In this document: positions 36,898 through 63,876 of the stretch, one piece after another | Layout of the letters: each line of letters begins with the position of its first letter | Numbering within the stretch: position 1 is the first letter of the stretch | Assembly: GCA_016719645.1 (NCBI GenBank) | Contig: JADJYS010000001.1 | Location: 134,558-198,557, forward strand | Direction of reading: 5' to 3' | Origin: a bacterium | Lineage (GTDB): Bacteria > Krumholzibacteriota > Krumholzibacteriia > LZORAL124-64-63 | Length of the DNA stretch: 64,000 nucleotides | Program-made: the position numbers and the translations under genes | The notes under the pieces: generated by a model | Told to the model about the DNA's origin: nothing | The model's input: only the letters and a program-made list of their open reading frames with translations | Database searches by the model: none

Positions 36898-38292
36898 CTA
36901 CTTCCAGTGCTCGCTCAGGAACTGGTCGACCTCGGGGATGCCGCCCTGGTACACGAGGTACCCGTTGTAGGGCTCCCGCTCGGTGATGTCGCGCGCGATC
37001 GGCGTCAGCATGATGCGGGCGACCTCGGCGGGGTCCTGCGTCTGGCCCAGCGCCCAGCCCAGCTTCATGTAGGCCACCTCGGGCAGCATGTTGGCCGCGG
37101 GCACGACGCCCAGCTCCATGATCTCGCGCCCGGTCTCGTACACGTACATCTGCACGAAGCCCCAGAGCGTCTGCACGGTCATGAACATCGAGACGCCCGC
37201 CTTGTGCGCCCGCTCCAGCGCGGGGTACAGGGGGCGGTTGACGTGGCCCAGGCCCGTGCCCGCGATGATGATCCCCTTGTAGCCGTGGTCGACCAGGCTG
37301 TCGATGACGTCCGGCTTCATGCCCGGGTAGTAGTAGACCAGCGAGACCCGGTCGTCGAAGACGGCCTTGACCGTGACGTCGCGGTCGGCGCGGCGGCGGC
37401 TGTAGTCGTTGCGGAACGGCGTGACGCCGTCCTGGTCGACCTTGCCCAGGGGGACGTCGCTCAGGGTGCGGAAGGTCGAGCGGTACGAGGAGTGCATCTT
37501 GCGCACGCGGGTGCCCTGGTGCAGCAGGCCGTACTGGTCGCTGGTGGGGCCGAACATGCAGACCATCACCTCGGCGAGGTCGCTGGTCGCGGCCGTGCGC
37601 GCGGCGTTCATGAGGTTGATGGCGGCGTCGGAGCTGGGCCGGTCGCTCGAGCGCTGGCTGCCGACCATGACGATCGGCACCGGCGAGCCCTGGACCATGA
37701 AGGAGAGGATGGCCGCGGTGTGGTGCATGGTGTCGGTGCCGTGCCCCACCACGATGCCGTCGACGCCGGCGGCGATCTCGCGCCCGATGGCCTCGGCCAG
37801 GCCGATCCACTGCTCGGGCCCCATGTTCTCGCTGAACACGCCGTAGAGCTTCTCGGTCTCCAGGTTGCAGACGTCCGCCAGCTCGGGCACCGAGCCGTAC
37901 AGCTCGCCGGGCGAGAAGGCGGGGATCACGGCGCCGGTGCGGTAGTCCAGGCGCGAGGCGATCGTGCCGCCGGTGCCCAGCAGCTTCACGCGGGGCTTGC
38001 CCTCGGAGTAGGGGAAGGCCTTCTCCGGGATCTTGTAGTTGGCGACCTTGCGCCCGTGGACCGTGATCTCCTGCATGCCCCCGACGTGCAGGCCGATGTT
38101 GTAGCCGGTCGACATCTTCAGCACGACGTGCTCGGGGTCGGCCATCTCGTTGCGCGGCAGGATCAGGCCGCGGAACTCGCCCCGGTCGGTGCGGATCGTG
38201 ACGTCGCTCCACACCAGCGCGTCGTGCTTCTTCAGCACGGCCAGCGCCGGGTCGCGGTAGCCCTTGTAGTCCTCGTTGCCGTTCCCGCTCAC
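36898..38292 (-). CDS. gatD: archaeal-type Glu-tRNA(Gln) amidotransferase subunit D (asparaginase-like)
   Basis: N-terminal GatD-specific domain (EHVVLKMSTGYNIGLHVGG) plus L-asparaginase fold (LGTGGTIAS, GIVVGHGTDTM). GTG start with GTGA overlap to gatE stop. Confidence 0.85.
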   Translation of the reverse strand: MSGNGNEDYKGYRDPALAVLKKHDALVWSDVTIRTDRGEFRGLILPRNEMADPEHVVLKMSTGYNIGLHVGGMQEITVHGRKVANYKIPEKAFPYSEGKPRVKLLGTGGTIASRLDYRTGAVIPAFSPGELYGSVPELADVCNLETEKLYGVFSENMGPEQWIGLAEAIGREIAAGVDGIVVGHGTDTMHHTAAILSFMVQGSPVPIVMVGSQRSSDRPSSDAAINLMNAARTAATSDLAEVMVCMFGPTSDQYGLLHQGTRVRKMHSSYRSTFRTLSDVPLGKVDQDGVTPFRNDYSRRRADRDVTVKAVFDDRVSLVYYYPGMKPDVIDSLVDHGYKGIIIAGTGLGHVNRPLYPALERAHKAGVSMFMTVQTLWGFVQMYVYETGREIMELGVVPAANMLPEVAYMKLGWALGQTQDPAEVARIMLTPIARDITEREPYNGYLVYQGGIPEVDQFLSEHWK

Positions 38293-40205
38293 GACGTCGC
38301 CTCCTCGAGCCAGGCGGCCGCCTGGCGTCCCGACACCCGGCCGCGCAGGGCGGGCATCACCCGGCCCATGATCGCGCGCCGCCGCGGCCCGTCCGCCTCC
38401 GGCAGGCCGGACGGCGGCGCGGCGGCCGCCTCGGCCCAGGCCGCGTCGAAGGCCGCGCGGGCCTCGCGCGGCGGCAGCGCGGCGGCGGGATCGCCGTCCG
38501 ACCACCAGATCGCTTCGGGCAGGACGCGGCCCGCGCGCAGCTCGTCCAGGGCGCGCTCCCACCAGGCGCCCGCCGCGGGCACGCTCGACGGCCGCGGCAG
38601 GTCGCGGTCCAGCAGCAGCGAGGCGAGCCCGGTCGCGGACAGGGGGCCGTCGCCGAGGCGGGGGTGCAGGTGGGCGTAGAGGTCGTAGGCCGGGTGCCGG
38701 GCCAGCCGGTCGGCCAGGTCCTCGCCCACGCCGTCGCGGCGCAGCCGCTCGCGGCGCTCCCAGGGCGGCGGCGGCAGGTCGGCGGCGAGGCGCGCGAGGC
38801 GGTCCGCGGCCAGCACGACCGGGGGCAGGTCGGTGTCCGGGTACATGCGGCTGGGGCCGGGCAGCACGCGCTCGAAGCCCGTGGTGTCGTCGGGCAGGGC
38901 CTGGCGGGTCTCCTCGGGCACGCCCTCGCAGGCCTCGCGCGCGCGCAGCAGGATCTCGCCCGCCGCGGTGCGGGCGTCGCGCTCGTCGCCCCAGACCACC
39001 ATGATGGGCGTGTCGCGCCCGACGCCGCAGGCGCGCTCGATGCGGCCCCACTCCGCCGACGAGAGCGTGGAGATCTCGCTCGTCGAGCAGATGACGTTCG
39101 GCAGCGTGTCGATGCAGGCGACCACGCGCACGCGGTCCGAGAATTCCTTCAGGAAGCGGGTGTGGGGCTGGGTCGGGGTGGAGACGAGCCCCTCGAAGCC
39201 GGGCAGGGGCACGGCCATGACGCGCGCGCCGCCCGCGACGGCCTCGCGCAGGTAGCTCCCCTCGGCGCCCTGGACGATCGAGGTCACGTCGCGCGAGGCG
39301 TCCGGCAGGGATTCCGCGGTCACGCCGCGCTCGCGCAGGACGTCGCGGATGGCCAGCAGGCTGCGCTGGCGCAGGGCCTCGTTGTGCACCAGCCGCGGGA
39401 TGCGCTTGATGCTCGGGACGCCCTTGATCTCGACGCGGGAGCCGCCGCGGATGCTGACGTTCACGTCCTGCCGCGCCGCGCCGACGCCCGTGCGCACCAG
39501 GCCGCTGGCGCGCGCCAGGCGGCGCAGCTCGTCGCAGACGGCGGCGACGTCCCAGGGGGTGTGCATGTCCGGATCGGTGACGGTCTCGATCAGGGGCATG
39601 CCGAGCCGGTCGGTGCGGTAGACGCGGGAGTGGCCGCGGTCGCTGACCTCGCGGCAGGAATCCTCCTCGATGGACAGCTGGCGGATCCCGATGCGCCGCC
39701 CGCGGTAGGGGACCGCGCCCTGGACGCCGATGATCGCCGTGCGCTGGAAGCCCGTCGGGATGCTGCCGTCGAGGTACTGCTTGCGGGCGATGTGGATCTC
39801 GTCGACCACCTGCAGGCCGAGCATCAGCGAGACCCGCACCGCGTGGTCGAGCGCCTCGGGGTTCATCTCGAAGGGCGGGGCGTCGTCCATCTCGTAGGTG
39901 CAGACCGTCTCGTCGTTCAGCAGGTAGGTGATGTTCTTGCGGGTCTTGAACTCCATCAGCGCGGTGCCGTCGTAGTCCCCCATCTCGCTGAGGGTCGGGC
40001 GCATGTGGCGCAGGATCTCCGCGTGGTGCTCGCCGGTGTAGCGGCCGGCGGGGCAGCGGCAGAAGAGCTTCTTCGAGGTCTGCAGCTGCTGGTGCACCTC
40101 GAGTCCGGACATCAGCCCGAGCGACTGGTATTCGTCCTCGCCCCAGGCTCCCAGGACGGGCAGCGGGGCGCCCTGCAGGGGATCGTAGCGGGAGACGTCG
40201 TTCAT
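38289..40205 (-). CDS. gatE: archaeal-type Glu-tRNA(Gln) amidotransferase subunit E
   Basis: GLEVHQQLQTSKKLFCRCP N-terminus, GatB/GatE catalytic core, C-terminal GatB/YqeY-like tail. About 638 aa as in archaeal GatE. Confidence 0.85.
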   Translation of the reverse strand: MNDVSRYDPLQGAPLPVLGAWGEDEYQSLGLMSGLEVHQQLQTSKKLFCRCPAGRYTGEHHAEILRHMRPTLSEMGDYDGTALMEFKTRKNITYLLNDETVCTYEMDDAPPFEMNPEALDHAVRVSLMLGLQVVDEIHIARKQYLDGSIPTGFQRTAIIGVQGAVPYRGRRIGIRQLSIEEDSCREVSDRGHSRVYRTDRLGMPLIETVTDPDMHTPWDVAAVCDELRRLARASGLVRTGVGAARQDVNVSIRGGSRVEIKGVPSIKRIPRLVHNEALRQRSLLAIRDVLRERGVTAESLPDASRDVTSIVQGAEGSYLREAVAGGARVMAVPLPGFEGLVSTPTQPHTRFLKEFSDRVRVVACIDTLPNVICSTSEISTLSSAEWGRIERACGVGRDTPIMVVWGDERDARTAAGEILLRAREACEGVPEETRQALPDDTTGFERVLPGPSRMYPDTDLPPVVLAADRLARLAADLPPPPWERRERLRRDGVGEDLADRLARHPAYDLYAHLHPRLGDGPLSATGLASLLLDRDLPRPSSVPAAGAWWERALDELRAGRVLPEAIWWSDGDPAAALPPREARAAFDAAWAEAAAAPPSGLPEADGPRRRAIMGRVMPALRGRVSGRQAAAWLEEATS

Positions 40206-40304
40206 GGGCGTCCTGTGCGGCTGGAGTGGAGGGAACGTGCGGCGCGGGACCAATATAGGGGGCGCGCTACGGGGGGCCAACGTTGTTTTCCCGTCGGCAG
40301 GAGG

Positions 40305-40335
40305 TTGTGAAATCTCGTCAACCAGCATCTTGACG
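40305..40335. promoter_or_regulatory. candidate Rex operator/inverted repeat in the gatE-rex divergent region
   Basis: TTGTGAAatctCGTCAAC matches half of the TTGTGAA-N4-TTCACAA Rex box. It overlaps a perfect IR cgtcaa-N8-ttgacg. Confidence 0.3.
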
Positions 40336-40434
40336 GGCATCCGGCGGCGGGAGTAGATTGGTCCTGTCAAAGACCTAACAAGAACGCTCGTGATCCGATC
40401 GGCGCCGCGCCGCGGCCGGCGAAGGGAGATCCCG

Positions 40435-41109
40435 GTGAGGGTCGTCAACACCAAGGGCAAGAAGTTCCGCGTTCCCGACGCCACCATCCTGCGTCTGCCG
40501 CTGTACCTGGACAAGCTCATCCTGCTGCAGCAGGCGGGCGTCAAGGAAGTCTCGTCGCGGCAACTCGCGACCTCCCTGGACATCAAGGCCAGCCAGCTGC
40601 GGCACGATTTCCACTACTTCGGGGGCTTCAGCAAGCCGGGCCGTCCCTACCAGGTCGACAAGCTGGTGCCGGCCCTCGAGGAGATCATCGGGGTCGACGT
40701 GCCGGTGCCCATGATCATCGTGGGAGCCGGCCACCTCGGCCAGGGCCTGGCCAACTACCGCAACTTCGAGCGCCTGGGCTTCCCGCTGCGCGGGATCTTC
40801 GACGTGGACCCGAAGCTCGTCGGCCTGGAGATCCGCGGCGTGCCGATCCGGCCGCTGTCCGAGATGCCCGCCTACGTGCAGGAGAACGGCATCCGGGTCG
40901 GCGTGCTGACCGTGCCGGTGGGGGTGGCCCAGGACGTCGCCAACCAGATGGTCGCCGCCGGCGTGGTCGGCATCTGGAACTTCACGCCGACCGACATCCG
41001 CACCCCGCCGCAGGTCATCGTGCGCAACGAGCGGCTGGCGGTGGGCCTGATGTGCCTGAGCTTCAAGGCCAAGCGGGTCGGCCAGGCCGAAGAGCTGAAG
41101 CAGGACTGA
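40435..41109 (+). CDS. rex: redox-sensing transcriptional repressor Rex
   Basis: RLPLYL...wHTH N-terminus and Rossmann NADH-sensing domain (IVGAGHLG). GTG start after GAAGGGAG RBS. Confidence 0.85.
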   Translation: MRVVNTKGKKFRVPDATILRLPLYLDKLILLQQAGVKEVSSRQLATSLDIKASQLRHDFHYFGGFSKPGRPYQVDKLVPALEEIIGVDVPVPMIIVGAGHLGQGLANYRNFERLGFPLRGIFDVDPKLVGLEIRGVPIRPLSEMPAYVQENGIRVGVLTVPVGVAQDVANQMVAAGVVGIWNFTPTDIRTPPQVIVRNERLAVGLMCLSFKAKRVGQAEELKQD

Positions 41110-42940: not shown

Positions 42941-43090
42941 CGCGCGTCCTCCGGTCTAGTGGGATGCAGCCCGGGCGCGAGTATAGGCGGGCCCGGGCCG
43001 GTCGCACAAGCGCGGAACCGCCGCCCACCCCGGCCGACGCGCGCTTGCGCCGCCGCCGCGTGCCGCCTATGATCGCCAAGGGAGGACCGC

Positions 43091-43804
43091 ATGAGCCGTC
43101 AGCAGAGCCGACGTCGCCGGGCCGAGGCCTTCATCTTCGACCTCGACGGCACGCTCGTCGACTCGGGACGCGATCTCGCCGTCTCGGCCAACTTCGTGCG
43201 CGCCCGCTTCGGGCTGCCGGAACTCCCGGAACCGGTCGTCGTCTCCTTCGTGGGCGACGGCGTGGGCAAGCTCGTCGAGCGCGCGCTGGCCGACCTGGGG
43301 GGACCGTCGGCCGCCGAGCGCGTCGCCGAGGGCCTGGGCGTCTTCATGGACCACCACGACCGCCACTGCCTCGACCACAGCCGCCTGTACCCGGGCGTGC
43401 TGGAGACGCTGCGCAGGTTCGCCGACTTCCCGCTGATGGTGGCCACGAACAAGTCCCGCCGCTTCGCCGTGAAGGTGCTGGCGGGACTGCACGTCGACGG
43501 GGCCTTCCGCCGGGTGGTGTGCGGCGACGACGTCGCACGCCGCAAGCCCGACCCCGAGCCGCTGGCGCTCTGCCTGCAGGGGCTGGGCGTCGACCCCCGC
43601 GACGTGGCCATGGTCGGGGACGGGACCAACGACGTCCTGGCGGCCCGCGCCCTGGGCTGCACCGCCGTCGGCTGCGCCTTCGGCCTCACCGCGCGCGACC
43701 GCCTGCTCGCCGCCGGCCCCGACCTCGTGCTGGAGTCCTTCGCCGAGCTCGCCGACCACTTCGTCTCCCGTCCCGCCCCCGCGCCCCGGAAGGCCGGCCC
43801 ATGA
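43091..43804 (+). CDS. HAD-family hydrolase (phosphoglycolate-phosphatase-like)
   Basis: FIFDLDGTLVDS motif I, VATNKS motif II, K...GDGTNDV motifs III/IV. Confidence 0.75.
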   Translation: MSRQQSRRRRAEAFIFDLDGTLVDSGRDLAVSANFVRARFGLPELPEPVVVSFVGDGVGKLVERALADLGGPSAAERVAEGLGVFMDHHDRHCLDHSRLYPGVLETLRRFADFPLMVATNKSRRFAVKVLAGLHVDGAFRRVVCGDDVARRKPDPEPLALCLQGLGVDPRDVAMVGDGTNDVLAARALGCTAVGCAFGLTARDRLLAAGPDLVLESFAELADHFVSRPAPAPRKAGP

Positions 43805-45577
43805 ACCGTCCGCCCGCGCTCTCGCCCTGGCCGCTCCACGACCTGCTCGCGCGCGCCGTCGCCGAGCTGGACGCCCGCGGCGCGATCTTCGACCTCCCGG
43901 CCGGCAAGTGGCACCGGCCCGTCGACGGCGTCGACCTCGCCGACACGGTCGGCGGCCACGCCGTCGGCACGCCGCTGGGCCCGGCCGCCGGTCCGCACAC
44001 GCAGCTGGCGCAGAACCTGGCCCTGAGCTGGCTGGCCGGGGCGCGCACCCTCGAACTCAAGACCGTCCAGGTCCTCGACGAGCTGGAGATCCCGCGCCCC
44101 TGCATCGACATGGCCGCCGAGGGCTACAACGTCGAATGGAGCCAGGAGCTGCGCCTGGAGGAGTTCCCTGCGCGAGTACGCCAAGGCCGCGCTGCTGATC
44201 GCGGTCCTGCGCGCCTGGGAGCCGGTGCGCGCGGTGGTCGGGGAGCCCGGCGGCCACGTCTTCGAGCTGTCGTGCGGCTACGACCTGGCCGGCGTGCGCA
44301 GCGCGACGATGGCCGCGTTCCTGGACCGCCTCGGCGACGCGGGCGCGGAGGTGGACGCGCAGCGCCGCGGGGTGCCGCGCGCGCTGGCCGCCCTGCGCGA
44401 CGTCGAGGTGCCGGCGCGCCTCTGCACCGGCGCCACCCTGAGCACCTTCCACGGCTGCCCGCCGGGGGAGATCGAGGCCATCGTCCGCCACCTGATGACC
44501 CGCCACGGCCTGGACGTCACGGTGAAGCTGAACCCCACGCTGCTGGGCGCCGACGCGGTGGCGGCGATCCTGCACGACCGGCTCGGCTACCGCGACGCGG
44601 CCCTGGTGCCGCAGGCCTTCGCCGAGGACCTGGTCATGGACCGCGCCCTGGAACTCGTCGGCGGCCTGGCGGATTTCGCGCGCGCGCAGGGCCGCCGCTT
44701 CGGCATCAAGCTCACCAACACCCTGGTGGTCGCCAACGCGCGCGGCCGCCTGCCGGGCGAGCGCGCCTACCTCTCGGGGGCGCCGCTGCACGTGCTGGCC
44801 GCCACCCTGCTGGCCGAACTCGACGCCCGCCTGCCCGGCCGCCTGGCGCTGGCCGGCCGGCCCGGGGGCGAGGTGCCGGTCTCGTTCTCGGCGGGGATCG
44901 AGCGCGGCAACGCGGCCGAGGCCGTGGCGCTCGGGCTGGCGCCGGTGACCGTCTGCAGCGACCTGCTGAAGCCCGGCGGCTACGGCCGCCTGTCCGGGAT
45001 GCTGCGCCGGCTGGCCGACGAGATGCGCGCCGCCGGCTGCGCCGACCTGGCGTCCTGGCGGGCGCGGGCCGCCGCCGCGGCCCGCGACGGCGGCTTCCCC
45101 TCGGCCGCGGCCGCCTACGCCGCGCGCCTGGCCGCCCCCGACGGCGCGGCGCCCTACGCCGCGGTCGCGGTGCGCGCGCCGCTGAAGAGCACCGGCCGCA
45201 AGCTGGACCTGTTCGACTGCACGAGCTGCCACCTCTGCGTGACGGTCTGCCCGAACGACGCGATGATCCGCCTGGCCCGTCCCGACGGGTGCGAGGACCG
45301 CCTGGCCAAGCGCTGGCAGTACCTGTGCCTGGCCGACCTGTGCAACGACTGCGGCAACTGCGCGACCTTCTGCCCCGACGACGGGGCGCCCCACCGGGCG
45401 AAGCCCCGCCTGCACCTGGCGGGCGGGGGGGCCGCGCCGGCCGAATCCGATTATCGTGTCGCGCGCGCCGGCGGGGCCTGGACCGCGGCCGGCGCGCGCG
45501 AACCCGCGCTGGTCGCCGCCCTGCTGCGCGACCTGCCGCTGCCGGCCGAGGACCCGGAACCCGAGGATGCGTCATGA
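43801..45577 (+). CDS. DHOD/DPD-family TIM-barrel flavoprotein with C-terminal 2x[4Fe-4S] ferredoxin domain (PreA-like), apparent 1-nt frameshift near 44175-44190
   Basis: N-terminal 120 aa (GTPLGPAAG...LELKTVQ...IPRP) in frame of 43801. Remainder (FELSCGY, VKLNPT, IKLTNT, CTSCHLCVTVCP, CNDCGNCATFCP) in ORF 44225..45577. Removing one base in gaggagttccctgcg gives continuous EESLREYAKAALL. ATGA overlaps with both neighbours. Confidence 0.7.
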
Positions 45578-47547
45578 CCGCACGTCCGCCCCTGTTCACG
45601 CCGTTCGCCCGCGACGAGGAGACCATCCGGATCGCGCCTGCGCTCGCCCGCGACGGCGGCCTGCTCGCCTGGGCCCGCGACTTCCAGCTGGGCACGGCCG
45701 GCTACCGCGACCTGCTCGACCCCGCCGACCTGCACAGCACCGAGGTCCCGTTCAACAGCCTGAACGTGTCGGTGATGCTGGCCGCCCGCGCCCAGCTGGC
45801 GCTCGAGGAGGGGCTGGCCCACCTCCACGTGGGCGGCGAGGTGCGGCCGCACACCCAGGAGTTCATCGACCTGGCGGCCCGCCTCTACGCCGCCTGCGGG
45901 ATCTGCGTCCACCTGCGTCCCGAGGGGGTGCGCACCACGCCGATCTGGCTGTCGTCCTTCGGGGTGAACTACGAGGAGCTGGACGGGGGCGAGAACTTCA
46001 CCGCCTCGCACAGCCAGAGCTACAAGGGCGGCTGGAAGCCGATGGACGAATCGGGCATGCAGCTGCTGGAGATGGCGGGCCGCATCGCCGACCGCGTGCG
46101 CCTGCTGGCCGAGCGGGCGGCCGAGGAGGGGCTCGAGATCCCGCTCGCGGCCGCGGACGACCCCCTGATCGTGCGCGACTTCGATCCCGTCGCCGCGTAC
46201 GCGGACGCGCTGCGGGCCATCGTGCCCGCGGACATGCTGGACGGGATCGCCGCGGCCGCGGCCCGGGGCTTCCGCACCGCGATCTGCACCGAGGGCGGCA
46301 GCATGGGCGCCGCCGCGCGCCGCGTCTTCGCCGAGCTGGGCGTGGGCGTCGACGGGGACGGGCCCGTCTTCTTCACCCACGAGGCGGAGGCCAGCGACTA
46401 CCACGGCATCGGGATCCTGGACGGCGTGAACCACGGCGTCGACCCCGGCAAGTGGCAGGTCTACAAGCACGTCGGCGCGCAGGCGCTGCTGCGGGAACGG
46501 CGCGCCGACCTGGTGTTCATCTGGGACCCCGACGGCGACCGCTTCAACATGGTGACCGCGGCGCCCGCCGCCCTGGCCGACCGCGCCCGCGCGGCCGGGC
46601 TCGAGGTCGACCCGCTCGACGACGCGCGCGTGCTGGTCTTCTTCAAGCCGAACCAGATCTACTTCATGCTCGCCGCGGCGCGCCTCGAGGCGCTGCACGC
46701 CGCCGGGACCCTCGGCGACGACGACTGGATCGTGGCCACGAGCTGGCCGACCAGCCGCAGCATCGGCGAGCTGGCCGAGGCCTTCAACCGGCGCCACGGC
46801 ACGCGGCTGAGCACCTTCCGCGTGCCGGTCGGCTTCAAGCACTTCGGGAGCCTGGTCGCCGACCTGGAGGACCAGGTGCTCGAGTCCGACCCCGACGATC
46901 CCGGCCTGACCACCCGCGCCGTGGACGCGACCGGGACCGAGACGGTGTTCGGCCCCCGCCCCCGGCTGCTGATCATGGCCGAGGAGAGCGGCGGCGCCGC
47001 GCTGGGCCCCGGCGACTGGATGCTGTCGCGCGACGAGGAGCGCGCGACCCTGGCGATCAAGGAGAAGGACGCCATGCAGGTCGGGCTGGTCGCCCTGGGC
47101 CTCGGGGCGCGCCTGTTCGCCGCGGGGGGCAGCTTCGCCGCCTTCTACCTGGACCGCCTCGACGCCTACGGCATCGTGCACCGGTTCTACGAGCGGCGCG
47201 ACGTGACCCTGTTCGACGAGTCGCTGCGCGGCGCGGCCCGCGAGGAGGCCCGCGCCGCGGGCAACCGGCGCAAGGCGGCCGCGGTGGCCTGCTTCGCGGC
47301 GCTGGAGGGGCTGCCGCCGGCCGAGGTGGCCGCCGCCCTGCGCCGGCGCCTGCCGGCGGGCTGCGAGCTGCCGCCGGTCGTGCGCTGCTTCCGGGCCGGC
47401 GACGGCACGCTGATCGAGTTCGAGGGCTGCTGGTTCGAACTGCGGGCCAGCGGCACCGACGCCGTGCTGCGCTACTACTGCGAGGGCGGCGACGCGGCGC
47501 GCGTCGGCGAGCTGAACTCGGCCCTGATCGGCCTGGACCTGGACTGA
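45574..47547 (+). CDS. alpha-D-phosphohexomutase-superfamily protein (PGM/PMM-like)
   Basis: Active-site Ser loop TASHSQSYKGGWK, metal loop DPDGDR, sugar-binding EESGG. 657 aa. Confidence 0.75.
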   Translation: MTARPPLFTPFARDEETIRIAPALARDGGLLAWARDFQLGTAGYRDLLDPADLHSTEVPFNSLNVSVMLAARAQLALEEGLAHLHVGGEVRPHTQEFIDLAARLYAACGICVHLRPEGVRTTPIWLSSFGVNYEELDGGENFTASHSQSYKGGWKPMDESGMQLLEMAGRIADRVRLLAERAAEEGLEIPLAAADDPLIVRDFDPVAAYADALRAIVPADMLDGIAAAAARGFRTAICTEGGSMGAAARRVFAELGVGVDGDGPVFFTHEAEASDYHGIGILDGVNHGVDPGKWQVYKHVGAQALLRERRADLVFIWDPDGDRFNMVTAAPAALADRARAAGLEVDPLDDARVLVFFKPNQIYFMLAAARLEALHAAGTLGDDDWIVATSWPTSRSIGELAEAFNRRHGTRLSTFRVPVGFKHFGSLVADLEDQVLESDPDDPGLTTRAVDATGTETVFGPRPRLLIMAEESGGAALGPGDWMLSRDEERATLAIKEKDAMQVGLVALGLGARLFAAGGSFAAFYLDRLDAYGIVHRFYERRDVTLFDESLRGAAREEARAAGNRRKAAAVACFAALEGLPPAEVAAALRRRLPAGCELPPVVRCFRAGDGTLIEFEGCWFELRASGTDAVLRYYCEGGDAARVGELNSALIGLDLD

Positions 47548-47558
47548 GGGAGGTACCC

Positions 47559-47828
47559 GTGGGAGGCAAGGGCTACGTCACGCTGACGGTCTACAGCGCC
47601 ACCTGGTGCCCGGACTGCCGCGTCGCCAAGCGCTTCCTGGACGAGCACGGCGTGGTGTACGACACGGTGGAGATCGACCGCGACGAGGACGCCGCCCGGC
47701 TGCTGGAGGAGCGGACCGGCAAGCGCGGGATCCCGTACTTCGTGCTGGACGGGGAGCGCTGGGTGCGCGCCTACGTCCCGCGCCAGGGCTTCGACCGCGA
47801 GGGCATGGCCGAGCTGCTCGGGCTCTGA
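47559..47828 (+). CDS. glutaredoxin-like protein (CPDC active site)
   Basis: 89 aa, TVYSATWCPDCRVAKRFL...GIPYFVL thioredoxin-fold motif. GTG start 8 nt after GAGGGAGG. Confidence 0.7.
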   Translation: MGGKGYVTLTVYSATWCPDCRVAKRFLDEHGVVYDTVEIDRDEDAARLLEERTGKRGIPYFVLDGERWVRAYVPRQGFDREGMAELLGL

Positions 47829-47851
47829 GCGCCGCGGCGCCGGACGCGGCC

Positions 47852-47968
47852 TCAGGCGCGCTTGCTGTGGTCGACCGCCTTGAGGATCTTCAGGTTCAGC
47901 ACGACGAACCGCAGCAGCTGGAACAGCTTGTTGTTCATCCAGTACTTGTCGCGCGGCGTGATCTCCAC
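47852..47968 (-). CDS. small ORF (38 aa) co-oriented downstream of SQR gene
   Basis: GTG start 8 nt after GGAGG that overlaps the SQR stop. VEITPRDKYWMNNKLFQLLRFVVLNLKILKAVDHSKRA, an amphipathic K/L-rich peptide. Confidence 0.35.
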   Translation of the reverse strand: MEITPRDKYWMNNKLFQLLRFVVLNLKILKAVDHSKRA

Positions 47969-47979
47969 GGGGCCGCCTC

Positions 47980-49416
47980 CTACTCGGGTATGATCTTCCA
48001 GCCGATGCGTCCCTGCAGCTTGTGCATGAACGTGGTATGGATCATGCGCTTCATCCAGGCGCCGGCCAGCCCCATCTCCATGTGCGTGACGAACTGGTCG
48101 CGCCCCGACTCGTTGGGGAAGCGCCGGTGGTCGGGGACCACCGGGTAGACCATGATCACCGCCGCCGACCCGTCCCGCAGCGAGTCCCCCATCGAGGCGA
48201 TGCAGGCCGCCGACATCTCGGTCATGCGTTCGCTGTGCGTCATGCGCCCGCGCGTCACCAGATCGACCACGTTCAGGGCCACGACGCGGCCGATGATGCC
48301 CGACACCATGCCGGTGCGGGGAGGCGCGGGACTCACCGGGCGTCCCGACGGCGTCTGGCGCGGGCGCGAGATCGGCCCGGGCGGCGCGAACGCGATGCCC
48401 GCGGCGAAGATCGAGGGGTAGTGCGGGTTCTGGTAGACGGCGGGCCAGGCGTCCGGGTCCCGCCGCAGCTCCTCGTAGGAGAGCCCGTAGCGGCCGTCCA
48501 CCGCCACCAGCCGCGCCGGCGTGACGACGCGGTCGGAGACGTCGCCGCCGTCGCGGCCGAGGTACTTCATGTCGACCCCGGTGAAGCGGGGGATGAGCAT
48601 GGCGAAATCGAACGGGGTCTCGCCCTCGCGGCCGGCGAGATCCTCCCAGAAGATGCGGCCGCCGTCGACCGCGTGGACCGACCGGGCCGTCTCGGGCGCG
48701 ATGCCGTAGTCGCGGAACGCCGCATCGATGAACTCGGCGCTGGTGGTGCGCACGCCGCGGTGCCTGGCCACCAGGCCGTCGATGCCGAAATCGCCCAGCT
48801 CGGGCTCGTTGGTGAGGTAGACCAGGTCGGCGCGGTCGCGCACCCCCTGCCGGACGAGGTCCTTGTGGACGTTGGTGATGTACTCGAGCGCCGCGCCCTG
48901 GCAGGTGGCGCCGCCGTGGCCGGTGCCGATCACCAGCCGCTGGCGTTCGCCGCGCCGCATGCGCCCGATCGACTCCAGGTAGCGGTCGCGAGCCTGCACG
49001 GCGTGCGGCGGCGTGCAGATCGACCAGGTCGCCCCCGCCGCGGGCCCCAGACCGGGGGTCGCGGCGAAGTCGAGCTTGGGCCCCGTCGCCAGGATCAGGT
49101 GGTCGTAGTCCAGGCGGAAGGGCTCGTCGCGGCCGTCTTCGGTCCGGCCGCAGACGAACCGCTCGTCGGGGTGCACCTCGTCCACGCGCCCCTGGACGAA
49201 GCCCACGCCGAAGCGGCGGTAGACCGGCGCCAGCGGGAACTGGGTCCGCTCCGGCGCCATGTGCCCGATGCCGACCCAAACCAGCGATGGGATGTAGACG
49301 AAGTTGGCGGAGCGGTTGACGACCGTGACCTCGTGGTCGCGGCCGAGCCGGTCCCCCAGGTAGAGCGCGGCGGTATGACCCGCGAAACCCGCGCCGACGA
49401 CGACGATCCTGGCCAT
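47980..49416 (-). CDS. sqr: sulfide:quinone oxidoreductase-like FAD-dependent pyridine-nucleotide-disulfide oxidoreductase
   Basis: MARIVVVGAGFAGHTAA FAD motif, second Rossmann (LVIGTGHGGATC), conserved Cys residues, C-terminal amphipathic membrane-anchoring helices. Confidence 0.8.
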   Translation of the reverse strand: MARIVVVGAGFAGHTAALYLGDRLGRDHEVTVVNRSANFVYIPSLVWVGIGHMAPERTQFPLAPVYRRFGVGFVQGRVDEVHPDERFVCGRTEDGRDEPFRLDYDHLILATGPKLDFAATPGLGPAAGATWSICTPPHAVQARDRYLESIGRMRRGERQRLVIGTGHGGATCQGAALEYITNVHKDLVRQGVRDRADLVYLTNEPELGDFGIDGLVARHRGVRTTSAEFIDAAFRDYGIAPETARSVHAVDGGRIFWEDLAGREGETPFDFAMLIPRFTGVDMKYLGRDGGDVSDRVVTPARLVAVDGRYGLSYEELRRDPDAWPAVYQNPHYPSIFAAGIAFAPPGPISRPRQTPSGRPVSPAPPRTGMVSGIIGRVVALNVVDLVTRGRMTHSERMTEMSAACIASMGDSLRDGSAAVIMVYPVVPDHRRFPNESGRDQFVTHMEMGLAGAWMKRMIHTTFMHKLQGRIGWKIIPE

Positions 49417-49591
49417 GGTCCCCCCCCGGAGTCGGACGCCCGGGCGGAGCCTAGCACGTCGCGCAGGCACCGGCTGCCGCTATTCCGCGGCGCTCCGGGC
49501 TTGGCAGCCCCGCGGGCCCCGTGGTAGCATGCCGGGGCCGGGCTTCCGCCCGCCCGGCCGAGCGATGTCACCGCCGGCAAGAGGAGGATCC

Positions 49592-50662
49592 ATGCGCGGC
49601 ACGAAGAACGTCCTGGTGGTGGGGACCGGGACCATCGGCGAGCCCCTGATCGGGCTGCTGAGCCATTTCAAGGACCAGTTGGGCGTCGACGAGGTGCTCT
49701 TCCACAAGAACACGCCGCTGGTCACCGACCGCAGCAAGGTCAAGGACCTCATCCGGCGCGGCGCGCGCATCGTCTCGGACAAGGATCACGTCGCGGGTTT
49801 CAAGGACATCGGCATCCAGGTCGACACCACGACCGAGGACGCGCTGCAGGCCGCGCGGGTCGTCATCGACTGCACGCCCCTGGGCAACGACATGAAGGAG
49901 AAGTGGTACCGGTCCTACGAGGGTTCGACCGACCTCTTCATCGCCCAGGGCAGCGAGTTCGGCTTCGGCAAGCAGTACGCGCGCGGGATCAACGACGAGG
50001 TGCTCGACCACGCGACCGACAAGTACCTGCAGGTGGTCAGCTGCAACACCCACAACCTGTCGCTGATCATCAAGATGCTCGGGCTCGGCGACGAGGGCCC
50101 CGACAACCTGGTGCAGGGGCGCTTCGTGTGCATCCGCCGCGCCAACGACATCAGCCAGGACGGCAAGTTCGTGCCGAGTCCCGAGGTCGGCTCGCACGGC
50201 GACGCCGTCTTCGGCACCCACCACGCCCGCGACGCCTGGCACCTGTTCAACACCCTGGGCTACGACCTGAAGCTGTTCTCCTCGGCCCTGAAGCTCAACA
50301 CCAACCTGATGCACACCCTGCAGTTCCACCTGACGGTGCGCAAGCCGGTGACCCACGCCGAGCTGATGCAGCGCTGCGAGGCCAACGACCGCGTGGCGAT
50401 GACCCACAAGAAGACGGCCAACTCGATCTTCTCGTTCGGGCGCGACCACGGCTTCTACGGCCGCATCCTCAACCAGACCGTGATCCCCTACAACGGGATC
50501 CACGTCTCGCAGGACGGCCGCGAGATCACCGGCTTCTGCTTCACCCCCCAGGACGGCAACAGCCTGCTGAGCTCGGTCGCCGCCACCGTCTGGGCGCTCT
50601 ACCCGGACACCTACGACAAGATCATCCAGTGCCTGCGGCCCTACTTCTTCGACGAGGTGTAG
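49592..50662 (+). CDS. type II (archaeal-type) glyceraldehyde-3-phosphate dehydrogenase homologue
   Basis: VLVVGTGTIGEPL N-terminal Rossmann. VVIDCTPLG and YLQVVSCNTHNL align with the archaeal GAPDH IDCTPEG / VVSCNTTGL catalytic-Cys motif. 356 aa. GAGGAGG RBS. Confidence 0.65.
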   Translation: MRGTKNVLVVGTGTIGEPLIGLLSHFKDQLGVDEVLFHKNTPLVTDRSKVKDLIRRGARIVSDKDHVAGFKDIGIQVDTTTEDALQAARVVIDCTPLGNDMKEKWYRSYEGSTDLFIAQGSEFGFGKQYARGINDEVLDHATDKYLQVVSCNTHNLSLIIKMLGLGDEGPDNLVQGRFVCIRRANDISQDGKFVPSPEVGSHGDAVFGTHHARDAWHLFNTLGYDLKLFSSALKLNTNLMHTLQFHLTVRKPVTHAELMQRCEANDRVAMTHKKTANSIFSFGRDHGFYGRILNQTVIPYNGIHVSQDGREITGFCFTPQDGNSLLSSVAATVWALYPDTYDKIIQCLRPYFFDEV

Positions 50663-57890: not shown

Positions 57891-57977
57891 TGGTGCCCGA
57901 GGGGAGACTCGAACTCCCACGAGGAATCCCTCACTACGACCTGAACGTAGCGCGTCTACCAATTCCGCCACCCGGGC
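57891..57977 (-). tRNA. tRNA-Leu (anticodon CAG) with encoded CCA
   Basis: Manual fold: 7-bp acceptor (one G-U), D-arm, anticodon stem ctacg/cgtag with loop uuCAGgu, long variable-arm hairpin, T-arm gggag-ttcgagt-ctccc, then CCA. Confidence 0.85.
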
Positions 57978-63538: not shown

Positions 63539-63615
63539 CGGGGCGTGGCGCAGCCCGGTAGCGCATCTGCTTTGGGAGCAGAGGGTCGCCGGTTCGAATC
63601 CGGCCGCCCCGACCA
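63539..63615 (+). tRNA. tRNA-Pro (anticodon TGG) with CCA
   Basis: Manual cloverleaf: cggggcg acceptor, gcgc/gcgc D-stem, tctgc-uuUGGga-gcaga anticodon arm, gccgg-ttcgaat-ccggc T-arm, discriminator A, CCA. Confidence 0.85.
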
Positions 63616-63704
63616 CCAACTCCGGTGCCGAGTCTTGACACTCCAGGACGCTTGGACCATTATGTCCGTCCGTGCCTCGACGAGAGCGCGGGCGCACGAT
63701 ACTG

Positions 63705-63781
63705 GCGCCTGTAGCTCAGTTGGATAGAGCACCGGACTTCTAATCCGGCGGTCGCAGGTTCGAATCCTGCCAGGCGCGCCA
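63705..63781 (+). tRNA. tRNA-Arg (anticodon TCT) with CCA
   Basis: Manual cloverleaf: gcgcctg/caggcgc acceptor, agttggatag D-loop, ccgga-cuUCUaa-tccgg anticodon arm, gcagg-ttcgaat-cctgc T-arm. Confidence 0.88.
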
Positions 63782-63799
63782 GCTCTGCGGATCTCGGGT

Positions 63800-63876
63800 G
63801 GTGGATGTAGCTCAATTGGCGGAGCCCCTGGTTGTGGTCCAGGTGGTCGTGGGTTCGAATCCCATCATCCACCCCA
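63800..63876 (+). tRNA. tRNA-His (anticodon GTG) with encoded G-1 and CCA
   Basis: Manual cloverleaf: extra 5' G pairs with discriminator C. cctgg-uuGUGgu-ccagg anticodon arm. gtggg-ttcgaat-cccat T-arm. Confidence 0.88.

Follow-up and report, generated by a model that had tools for sequence, protein, structure and literature searches.

Do four bacterial genes packed so tightly that some of them overlap make up a pathway? The question is raised by positions 43091-47828 of a 64,000-nt stretch of contig JADJYS010000001.1 (assembly GCA_016719645.1, Krumholzibacteriota; positions 134,558 to 198,557 of the forward strand), which is called the window here. Four genes follow one another on the + strand and encode a phosphatase of the HAD superfamily (HAD), a flavoprotein (gene 2), a phosphohexomutase-like protein (mutase) and a small glutaredoxin (Grx). 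An earlier note, made from the letters alone, took gene 2 for a PreA-like protein and read the coupling of the four genes as the sign of a shared pathway that it did not recognise. By sequence comparison, gene 2 is a short form of YgfK (YgfKN), and the array is a real but ordinary juxtaposition, what little is new about it being the short variant of YgfK and the divergent family of the mutase. We propose, with a probability of roughly 60%, that the locus arose when genes that had long been neighbours were compacted in one lineage, and that it is not a dedicated four-step pathway.

Distribution of the array

The array was surveyed by tblastn in 11 loci obtained from exact protein look-ups and in 80 metagenome loci, together with a neighbour-joining (NJ) tree of the mutase. 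The loci are partly redundant, the NJ trees carry no support values, and the neighbours were annotated by tblastn with a handful of queries and by Pfam for selected open reading frames (ORFs). The label 'Krumholzibacteria-like' follows the majority of the named homologues of a locus, the taxon labels of the closest relatives being variable ('bacterium', Latescibacteria, Fibrobacter).

The order HAD-YgfKN-mutase-Grx was found only in one family-level clade, namely in the window's genus (the window, L010/L096, L097, L006, L050 and, in part, L011) and in L098 and L101. The proteins of L098/L101 are 74% (mutase), 60% (YgfKN), 55% (HAD) and 70-74% (Grx) identical to those of the window, and their genes are separated by gaps of 30-160 nt, whereas ATGA overlaps are found in the window's genus. 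Within the same clade, the order is HAD-FG-GAP protein-mutase-Grx in L099 and HAD-FG-GAP-mutase in L008/L009, and only HAD-mutase is left in L007, L100, L102, L149 and L168. YgfKN has been lost or replaced at least twice within the clade with HAD and mutase staying. This speaks against the four genes depending obligately on one another in function, and hence against one new pathway.

Outside this clade the genes move apart. In the next clade out, L019 has the order HAD-YgfKN-CxxCxxCC protein-mutase. In still more distant lineages the mutase shares a strand with HAD-YgfKN, which a methyltransferase often follows, at a distance of 5.5 kb (L127), about 9-10 kb (L107, L016) or 15.6 kb (L012/L003), and in other lineages (L001, L004 and others) the mutase stands in unrelated contexts. 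In the remainder of the phylum, distances of 1-16 kb separate HAD-YgfKN from the mutase, which sometimes has Grx with it, or the two are unlinked. Upstream sequence of 3 kb or more is available for 45 mutase loci; HAD lies within 3 kb in 16 of them and YgfKN in eight, six of which belong to the window's genus. Thirty of these loci have a mutase less than 73% identical to that of the window, and 29 of the 30 have neither HAD nor YgfKN within 3 kb; the exception is L019, which has both.

The HAD gene is part of a conserved backbone, GatDE-Rex-FabH-SPOR-HAD, in Krumholzibacteria-like loci. We propose that the ancestral neighbourhood was GatDE-Rex-FabH-SPOR-HAD-YgfKN ... mutase, and that the intervening DNA was progressively deleted. 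Deletions of 1-16 kb between the modules would have produced the overlapping array of the window's genus, in which a first module, HAD-YgfKN, would bring together the Gph-like phosphatase of the backbone and the short YgfK, and a second would consist of the mutase, with Grx in some lineages. YgfKN would later have been replaced or lost at least twice.

A shared pathway of the four genes, as supposed in the earlier note, is weakly supported: the array does recur in the window's genus, L098 and L101, but sister lineages keep HAD-mutase without YgfKN or Grx. The earlier note had itself said that genes not co-occurring in related genomes would speak against the pathway, and here the outcome is mixed, as the genes are not together elsewhere in the phylum or in any of the 75 YgfKN loci from other phyla described below.

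Neighbourhoods of the short YgfK in other phyla

The short form (about 590 amino acids (aa)) is abundant: it gave 6007 matches, and over 600 stretches that carry it were found in the species genomes of GTDB. Its neighbourhoods were compared in 80 fetched loci by tblastn with proteins of the E. coli urate cluster, and 75 of these loci come from non-Krumholzibacteria phyla; Acidimicrobiia, Acidobacteriota, Myxococcota, Elusimicrobiota, Planctomycetota, Gemmatimonadota, Proteobacteria and Eisenbacteria are among those sampled. At least one urate-cluster gene (SsnA, Xdh, YgeW, YgeX, YgeY, YqeA or HyuA) was found in 59 of the 75 loci, and in 48 of the 56 that are 12 kb or longer. SsnA and Xdh are each present in 48 of the 75, and YgeW, YqeA, YgeY, YgeX and HyuA are frequent. 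Clusters with SsnA, Xdh, YgeW, YgeY and YqeA surround the short YgfK in L017, L054, L056, L059, L067, L070, L084-L088 and many others of L017-L094. Genes for HAD, mutase and Grx were detected by tblastn in none of the 75 loci. A GltD-like neighbour was seen in only three, each time as part of a second, full-length ygfK.

The Krumholzibacteria copies of YgfKN keep 116 of the 117 columns that are at least 95% conserved in other phyla. In addition, they group with Acidimicrobiia copies from complete urate clusters in an unbootstrapped NJ tree. An Acidimicrobiia SsnA query aimed at Krumholzibacteria was uninformative: among the matches listed (at least 120), all had identities of 72% or more, and those with names were for the most part of the Actinomycetota type. 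The short YgfK is the form found in the SsnA/Xdh urate clusters of many environmental phyla. In L012, L013/L016, L018 and L107 the gene that follows YgfKN, on its strand, encodes a UbiE-like class-I SAM methyltransferase, and in L013 the two genes overlap; the methyltransferase gene is not part of the window array.

One operon or a compaction

Bacteria commonly have both co-directional runs of four genes and 4-nt ATGA overlaps, which means that such a layout is no statistical oddity in itself. Several observations nevertheless weigh against a mere compaction. The array has been kept across substantial divergence (L098/L101) and, judged by its ATGA overlaps, would be translationally coupled in the window's genus, a pattern compatible with selection for co-expression. 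The distance between YgfKN and the mutase shrinks in several lineages (15.6, 5.5, 1.1 and 0.1 kb, and -4 nt), and repeated selection, not neutral deletion, could account for this. The mutase family has a recurrent HAD-fold partner, which may point to a functional link between HAD and mutase. Finally, no homologue of SsnA, XdhD or XdhA was found in the 64-kb window, nor within 10 kb of YgfKN in any Krumholzibacteria-like locus, and as no SsnA or Xdh is nearby, an oxopurine substrate of YgfKN in Krumholzibacteria is putative.

A second explanation is that the four genes (or five, with the dehydrogenase gene downstream) are one functional operon for an undescribed pathway, for example of purine nucleotide or nucleoside breakdown. 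HAD would then be a nucleotidase and the PGM-like protein a pentose- or hexose-phosphate mutase, while the short YgfK would reduce the freed oxopurine base and Grx would supply or protect thiols. Such an operon would agree with the ATGA overlaps and the 11-nt spacer, with the absence of matches to internal promoters or terminators in the array (the scan being weak for this kind of organism), and with the order kept in L098 and L101 despite a protein divergence of 26-45%. The adjacency of mutase and Grx in eight lineages, the HAD-fold partners that recur with this mutase family and the archaeal phosphopentomutases within the PGM superfamily point the same way. We nevertheless regard one operon as unlikely, perhaps one chance in several. 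An unrelated FG-GAP protein replaced YgfKN, or YgfKN was lost, at least twice (L099, L008, L007, L100, L102, L149), the genes are apart in most of the phylum, and the 75 loci of other phyla all lack HAD, mutase and Grx, with urate-cluster genes found instead. The array itself holds no nucleoside phosphorylase, Xdh or SsnA, and the mutases of the sister clade have a HAD partner of another type (PMM-like IIB) than the IA type present here.

A more far-reaching proposal is more doubtful still. In it, one Krumholzibacteria clade would have joined a ferredoxin-dependent short YgfK, the HAD, a mutase of a new type, a dedicated Grx and possibly the GAPDH-like dehydrogenase into a genuine operon that links the release of nucleotide or nucleoside sugar phosphates to reductive oxopurine breakdown; separately, the mutase with its HAD-fold partner would represent a new phosphohexomutase specificity class.

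We therefore prefer the compaction of older neighbours. Real functional links are best hinted at by the repeated pairing of the mutase with Grx and with HAD-fold proteins. A tightly overlapping string of genes in a high-GC metagenome-assembled genome (MAG) need not be a pathway.

Gene layout and the reading frame of gene 2

The G+C content of the window is about 72%, and long spurious ORFs occur everywhere. Frame-aware reading places four genes (HAD, YgfKN, mutase and Grx) on the + strand at 43091-47828, in agreement with the coordinates given by the earlier note. The features of the locus are as follows.

42941..43090, + strand: intergenic region upstream of the HAD gene, divergent from a SPOR-domain gene, with the Shine-Dalgarno sequence AAGGGAGGA directly 5' of the ATG
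43091..43804, + strand: HAD-IA phosphatase, 237 aa (Pfam HAD_2, E 2.9e-30)
43801..44163, + strand: 5' segment of YgfKN in frame 1, 121 codons, with the invariant motifs GPAAGPHTQ, RPCID and NVEWSQEL
44164..44165, + strand: frameshift site, a TT dinucleotide of which one T is an insertion according to alignments to relatives
44166..45577, + strand: 3' segment of YgfKN in frame 2, which completes the TIM barrel and encodes the C-terminal ferredoxin domain (two CxxCxxCxxxCP motifs)
45574..47547, + strand: divergent protein of the alpha-D-phosphohexomutase superfamily, 657 aa, with TASHS (Ser145), DPDGDR, AEESGG and RASGTDAVLR invariant in the family
47548..47558, + strand: 11-nt spacer GGGAGGTACCC, which holds the Shine-Dalgarno sequence of Grx
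47559..47828, + strand: glutaredoxin-like protein, 89 aa, which starts with GTG and has CPDC as its active site (Pfam Glutaredoxin, E 1.7e-15)
49592..50662, + strand: divergent type-II GAPDH-like dehydrogenase, 356 aa, a possible fifth member of the genus-level array

The stop of HAD overlaps the start of gene 2 by ATGA (43801-43804), and the stop of gene 2 overlaps the start of the mutase in the same way (45574-45577); both overlaps had been recognised before. Grx has its own Shine-Dalgarno sequence (GGGAGG), again as previously read, but its GTG start lies 11 nt, not 12 nt, past the mutase stop, at 47559. Neither a sigma-70-like promoter nor an Rfam element was found upstream of the array (42941..43090), and Rfam gave no riboswitch or other RNA leader ahead of the array that could name a ligand. 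The only Rfam matches in the window are three clustered tRNA genes at 63539-63873 (+ strand) and one tRNA gene at 57894-57977 (- strand).

Gene 2 had been read as an intact ORF, and the break in its frame was missed. Its start, at 43801, lies in frame 1 and its end, at 45577, in frame 2; the 1777 nt that the gene covers do not divide evenly by 3. An extra T inside GAGTTCCCTG (TT, 44164-44165) breaks the frame, giving GAG-TTCC-CTG where the relatives have GAG-TCC-CTG. This T is present only in the window and is missing from the five close and four distant relatives aligned (including L010, L015, L006, L050, L012, L013, L018 and L019). It is the sole uncompensated coding indel across 18 kb aligned with L010 (GCA_016278185.1), a close relative with an intact 591-aa gene 2 and the same ATGA overlaps. 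When the extra T is removed, gene 2 of the window also encodes 591 aa, 92.6% identical to the protein of L010, and the corrected gene has a dN/dS of 0.23 against L010 over its whole length, with values of 0.16-0.26 for the neighbours.

Since frame 1 as assembled stays open from 43801 through the mutase stop, a stop-free ORF of 1527 aa (42964-47547, + strand) begins upstream of the array and takes in the out-of-frame portion of gene 2 as well as the mutase. It exemplifies how high G+C content and one indel can lead to a very long false or fused ORF. The single-base indel that breaks this gene of the array is revealed only by frame-aware reading.

A residual assembly error is the more likely origin of the extra T, about twice as likely as a very recent real mutation. 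The locus-tag series of the window (IPM94) suggests that it comes from the same long-read project as GCA_016706845.1, whose 'tig...' contigs L006 and L050 have at least 20 indels over the same 4.8 kb, this T not among them. The region is present twice in GCA_016706845.1, on different contigs about 90% (L006) and about 97% (L050) identical to the window. Both copies carry many indels, with frameshifts in the HAD and YgfKN genes, and L050 has a 143-bp gap, which suggests strain mixing together with long-read errors in that assembly.

If the frameshift were real, YgfKN would be a very recent pseudogene in this strain, as fits a clade in which a dispensable gene has been lost repeatedly, and ribosomes that start at 43801 would be out of its frame past the insertion and read on in that of the mutase. 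The T does stand in the sequence as given, with frame 1 open to 47547, and YgfKN is absent from the sister lineages L007, L008, L100, L102, L149 and L099. In addition, the contig is not obviously error-rich, as the 18 kb compared with L010 contain no further uncompensated coding indel. However, the dN/dS of 0.23 over the corrected gene shows no relaxed constraint and all family-invariant residues are kept. The insertion is also missing from L050, which is the closest relative at the DNA level and encodes an identical HAD protein, and the locus-tag series would tie the window to a long-read MAG project with indel-rich sister contigs. A real frameshift is thus a possible but distinctly less probable explanation. 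A programmed +1 ribosomal frameshift, recalling prfB in that a Shine-Dalgarno-like GGAGGAG lies directly upstream of TTC-CCT (CTGGAGGAGTTCCCTG puts a GGAGG-like element immediately 5' of the shift site), can be ruled out for practical purposes, since no homologue carries the extra base and all are read in a single frame, so that the site is not conserved, GGAGGAG merely encodes Leu-Glu-Glu and is present in the in-frame relatives too, and, unlike in prfB, there is no in-frame stop codon at the site.

Gene 2 is a short form of YgfK

The YgfK model of NCBIfam, TIGR03315, matches gene 2 at positions 4-405 (E 2e-115) with a score of 386 against a cut-off of 835. BLASTP aligned residues 7-404 of gene 2 to residues 5-405 of E. 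coli YgfK with 39% identity and residues 476-534 to 905-958 with 46%, and gave no alignment to YgfK residues of about 410-900, that is, to the central module. The AlphaFold model of gene 2 (pLDDT 88, pTM 0.91) found class-2 DHODH and pig DPD as its best PDB matches in Foldseek, with E of about 1e-8 and TM of about 0.6 on the target. Eight invariant cysteines form two CxxCxxCxxxCP motifs (C473/476/479/483 and C514/517/520/524). Judged by these comparisons, gene 2 is a short YgfK, with a predicted FMN-type TIM barrel and C-terminal 2x[4Fe-4S] domain, from which the central GltD-like FAD/NADPH module has been removed. As the short YgfK falls below the cut-off of TIGR03315, the InterPro counterpart of which we take to be IPR017701, surveys by that model would probably miss it.

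Of the PreA-like assignment in the earlier note, the TIM barrel and the two 4Fe-4S motifs stand, but the family is YgfK and no PreA or DHO_dh model matches. Pfam DHO_dh (PF01180) gave no match to gene 2, the NCBIfam PreA model NF006183 met only the Fe-S motif (E 0.0072), and PDB sequence searches with genes 2 and 3 returned only Fe-S motif or marginal matches. A PreA or PyrD paralogue was rejected on the missing DHO_dh match and the strong match to YgfK. A glutamate-synthase small subunit with a partner encoded elsewhere was rejected too, since the GltD-like part is exactly what is absent; the earlier note had listed a standard PyrD paralogue and such a subunit as outcomes that would overturn its reading, and gene 2 is neither. 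Its statement that a PreT partner is lacking holds, as no PreT/GltD-like gene lies alongside gene 2. None was found in the whole window either, where a query with the central and C-terminal parts of YgfK matched only the Fe-S domain of gene 2 itself.

According to two preprints of 2025, E. coli YgfK is the NADPH-dependent 2,8-dioxopurine (isoxanthine) reductase of reductive urate degradation and is coupled to the amidohydrolase SsnA (10.1101/2025.04.24.650524; 10.1101/2025.05.19.654654). By homology, YgfKN would most likely catalyse the reduction of an oxopurine-type ring, reducing a C=C bond of the heterocycle (2,8-dioxopurine in E. coli). Because the FAD/NADPH module is absent, the window protein should be unable to take electrons from NADPH by itself, and an external donor, for instance ferredoxin, would most likely supply the electrons by way of the two Fe-S clusters. 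The pyrimidine or nucleoside salvage module guessed at in the earlier note was close in its area, nucleobase metabolism, but wrong in its family, which is that of 2,8-dioxopurine reductase.

The mutase belongs to a small divergent family

The Pfam matches of the mutase are weak and comprise PGM domains I, II and IV, with I and IV above the cut-offs and II weak. No NCBIfam model came near its cut-off, the best being Arch_GlmM with 42 bits against 439 and only about 40 residues covered, and no PDB sequence match was below E 0.02. By NCBIfam and PDB sequence search the protein therefore fits none of the characterised specificity groups (Pgm, PMM/PGM, GlmM, PNGM, phosphopentomutase). However, all four domains of its AlphaFold model (pLDDT 87.7) align to bacterial PGMs over about 640 columns (Foldseek E 4e-23). 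The catalytic loops NFTASHS (S145), DPDGDR (318-323), AEESGG (469-474) and RASGTDAVLR (624-633) are invariant in 27 homologues, and because all four are invariant, the protein should be an active phosphosugar mutase. It is predicted to form a phosphoserine at Ser145, to hold Mg2+ by D318/D320/D322 and to move a phosphate on a sugar phosphate, with a sugar-binding loop like that of PGM.

The protein is conserved at 63-75% identity across Krumholzibacteria-like genomes. Its family is small, with 212 representatives at E<=1e-3 and 50 at E<=1e-30 among 1.84 billion representative sequences. The mutase belongs to a small, divergent branch of the phosphohexomutase superfamily that is intact in its catalytic motifs.

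In the sister clade (39-44% identity; L158-L175 except L168), a eukaryotic-PMM-like HAD gene lies directly upstream of the mutase in 14 of 17 loci, and in P0245 (951 aa) such a HAD is fused to it. Genes of sugar metabolism are also found nearby in this clade, for an NAD-dependent epimerase (L158, L169) and for a PfkB kinase (L174). As a family that is repeatedly paired or fused with HAD-fold proteins, these mutases could be of specialist interest. More distant relatives (27-35% identity) are domains of predicted giant proteins, among them P0261 (4781 aa), P0262 (5945 aa) and P0269 (7416 aa); P0261 also carries a Glu/Leu dehydrogenase domain. They could be true multi-enzyme proteins or artefacts of gene calling.

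HAD, Grx and the flanking genes

Pfam and NCBIfam support the HAD, mutase and CPDC glutaredoxin identities given by the earlier note, with all four catalytic motifs present in the mutase. The motifs DLDGT and GDGTNDV of HAD are intact, and the protein is most similar to phosphoglycolate phosphatase (Gph). Its matches to NCBIfam Gph models reach E 2e-56 and stay under the equivalog cut-offs (190.8 against 225 for NF009695 and 147.4 against 180 for TIGR01449). Grx lies directly 3' of the mutase in 13 loci of eight lineages, with a conserved C[PG]DC motif, and may keep a thiol reduced or regulate the mutase.

The GAPDH-like gene (49592..50662) follows Grx on the same strand, about 105 nt on, in L010, L006, L011, L096 and L097. 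Its product has no Pfam match, is distantly related to archaeal type-II GAPDH (2yyy in the PDB, E 2e-10) and scores 82.7 bits against a cut-off of 185 with NF003251. It carries the motif VVSCNTHN and is 96-97% conserved within the genus. In the window, a segment of 1.66 kb (47825-49490), absent from L010, has been inserted between Grx and this gene. The gene of the segment (47980-49470, - strand) encodes a Pyr_redox_2 flavoprotein with a weak match to type-III sulfide:quinone reductase (E 7e-14, far under the cut-off).

Genes for GatD (GatD_N and asparaginase domains) and GatE (GatB_N) lie upstream at 36898-40586 on the - strand, as they do in L007, L010 and L013, and the pair is conserved beside Rex-FabH-SPOR in several Krumholzibacteria-like loci. 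GatDE is the Glu-tRNA(Gln) amidotransferase of the archaeal type, and such a conserved pair seems unusual in a bacterium.

Comparison with known systems

The closest characterised relative of gene 2 is E. coli YgfK, with which it shares a homologous N-terminal FMN-type TIM barrel (39% over about 400 aa) and a C-terminal 2x[4Fe-4S] domain (46%). Relatives of the short form adjoin SsnA and Xdh, as ygfK does in E. coli. The window protein, however, has 591 aa against 1032 aa and lacks the central GltD-like FAD/NADPH module of about 480 aa, and its gene is frameshifted and lies outside a urate cluster. PreA/PreT, mammalian DPD and class-2 DHODH resemble gene 2 in that a DHOD-like FMN TIM barrel is followed by two 4Fe-4S clusters, as in PreA, but the identity is only 13-19%, and a PreT-like partner is found neither in the window nor beside members of the family. 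In function, clostridial PydAc and C. difficile UacX offer an analogy, as FMN/Fe-S reductases that dearomatise heterocycles without an NAD(P)H/FAD module and need an external low-potential donor (10.1101/2025.05.19.654654). UacX belongs to the PF01180 (PydA/DHO_dh) family, whereas the window protein is of the YgfK lineage.

The mutase shares its four-domain fold with bacterial alpha-PGMs (Thermus 2z0f, Salmonella 2fuv/3olp) and PMM/PGM (Foldseek E 4e-23 to 1e-21, TM about 0.74 on the target), and the phosphoserine, metal, sugar and phosphate loops are all there. It differs from the bacterial PGMs in being only 16-20% identical and 100-200 aa longer, in having no NCBIfam equivalog match and in forming a separate small family. 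HAD is closest to Gph of the HAD-IA type, which provides its best NCBIfam matches; the motifs of HAD are intact, but it scores under every Gph equivalog cut-off. Grx has the CxxC thioredoxin fold and the size (about 80-90 aa) of small glutaredoxins of the YruB, NrdH and mycoredoxin type, with a Pfam Glutaredoxin score above the cut-off. It differs from them in scoring under the cut-offs of all specific NCBIfam models and in being the partner directly downstream of this mutase family in eight lineages.

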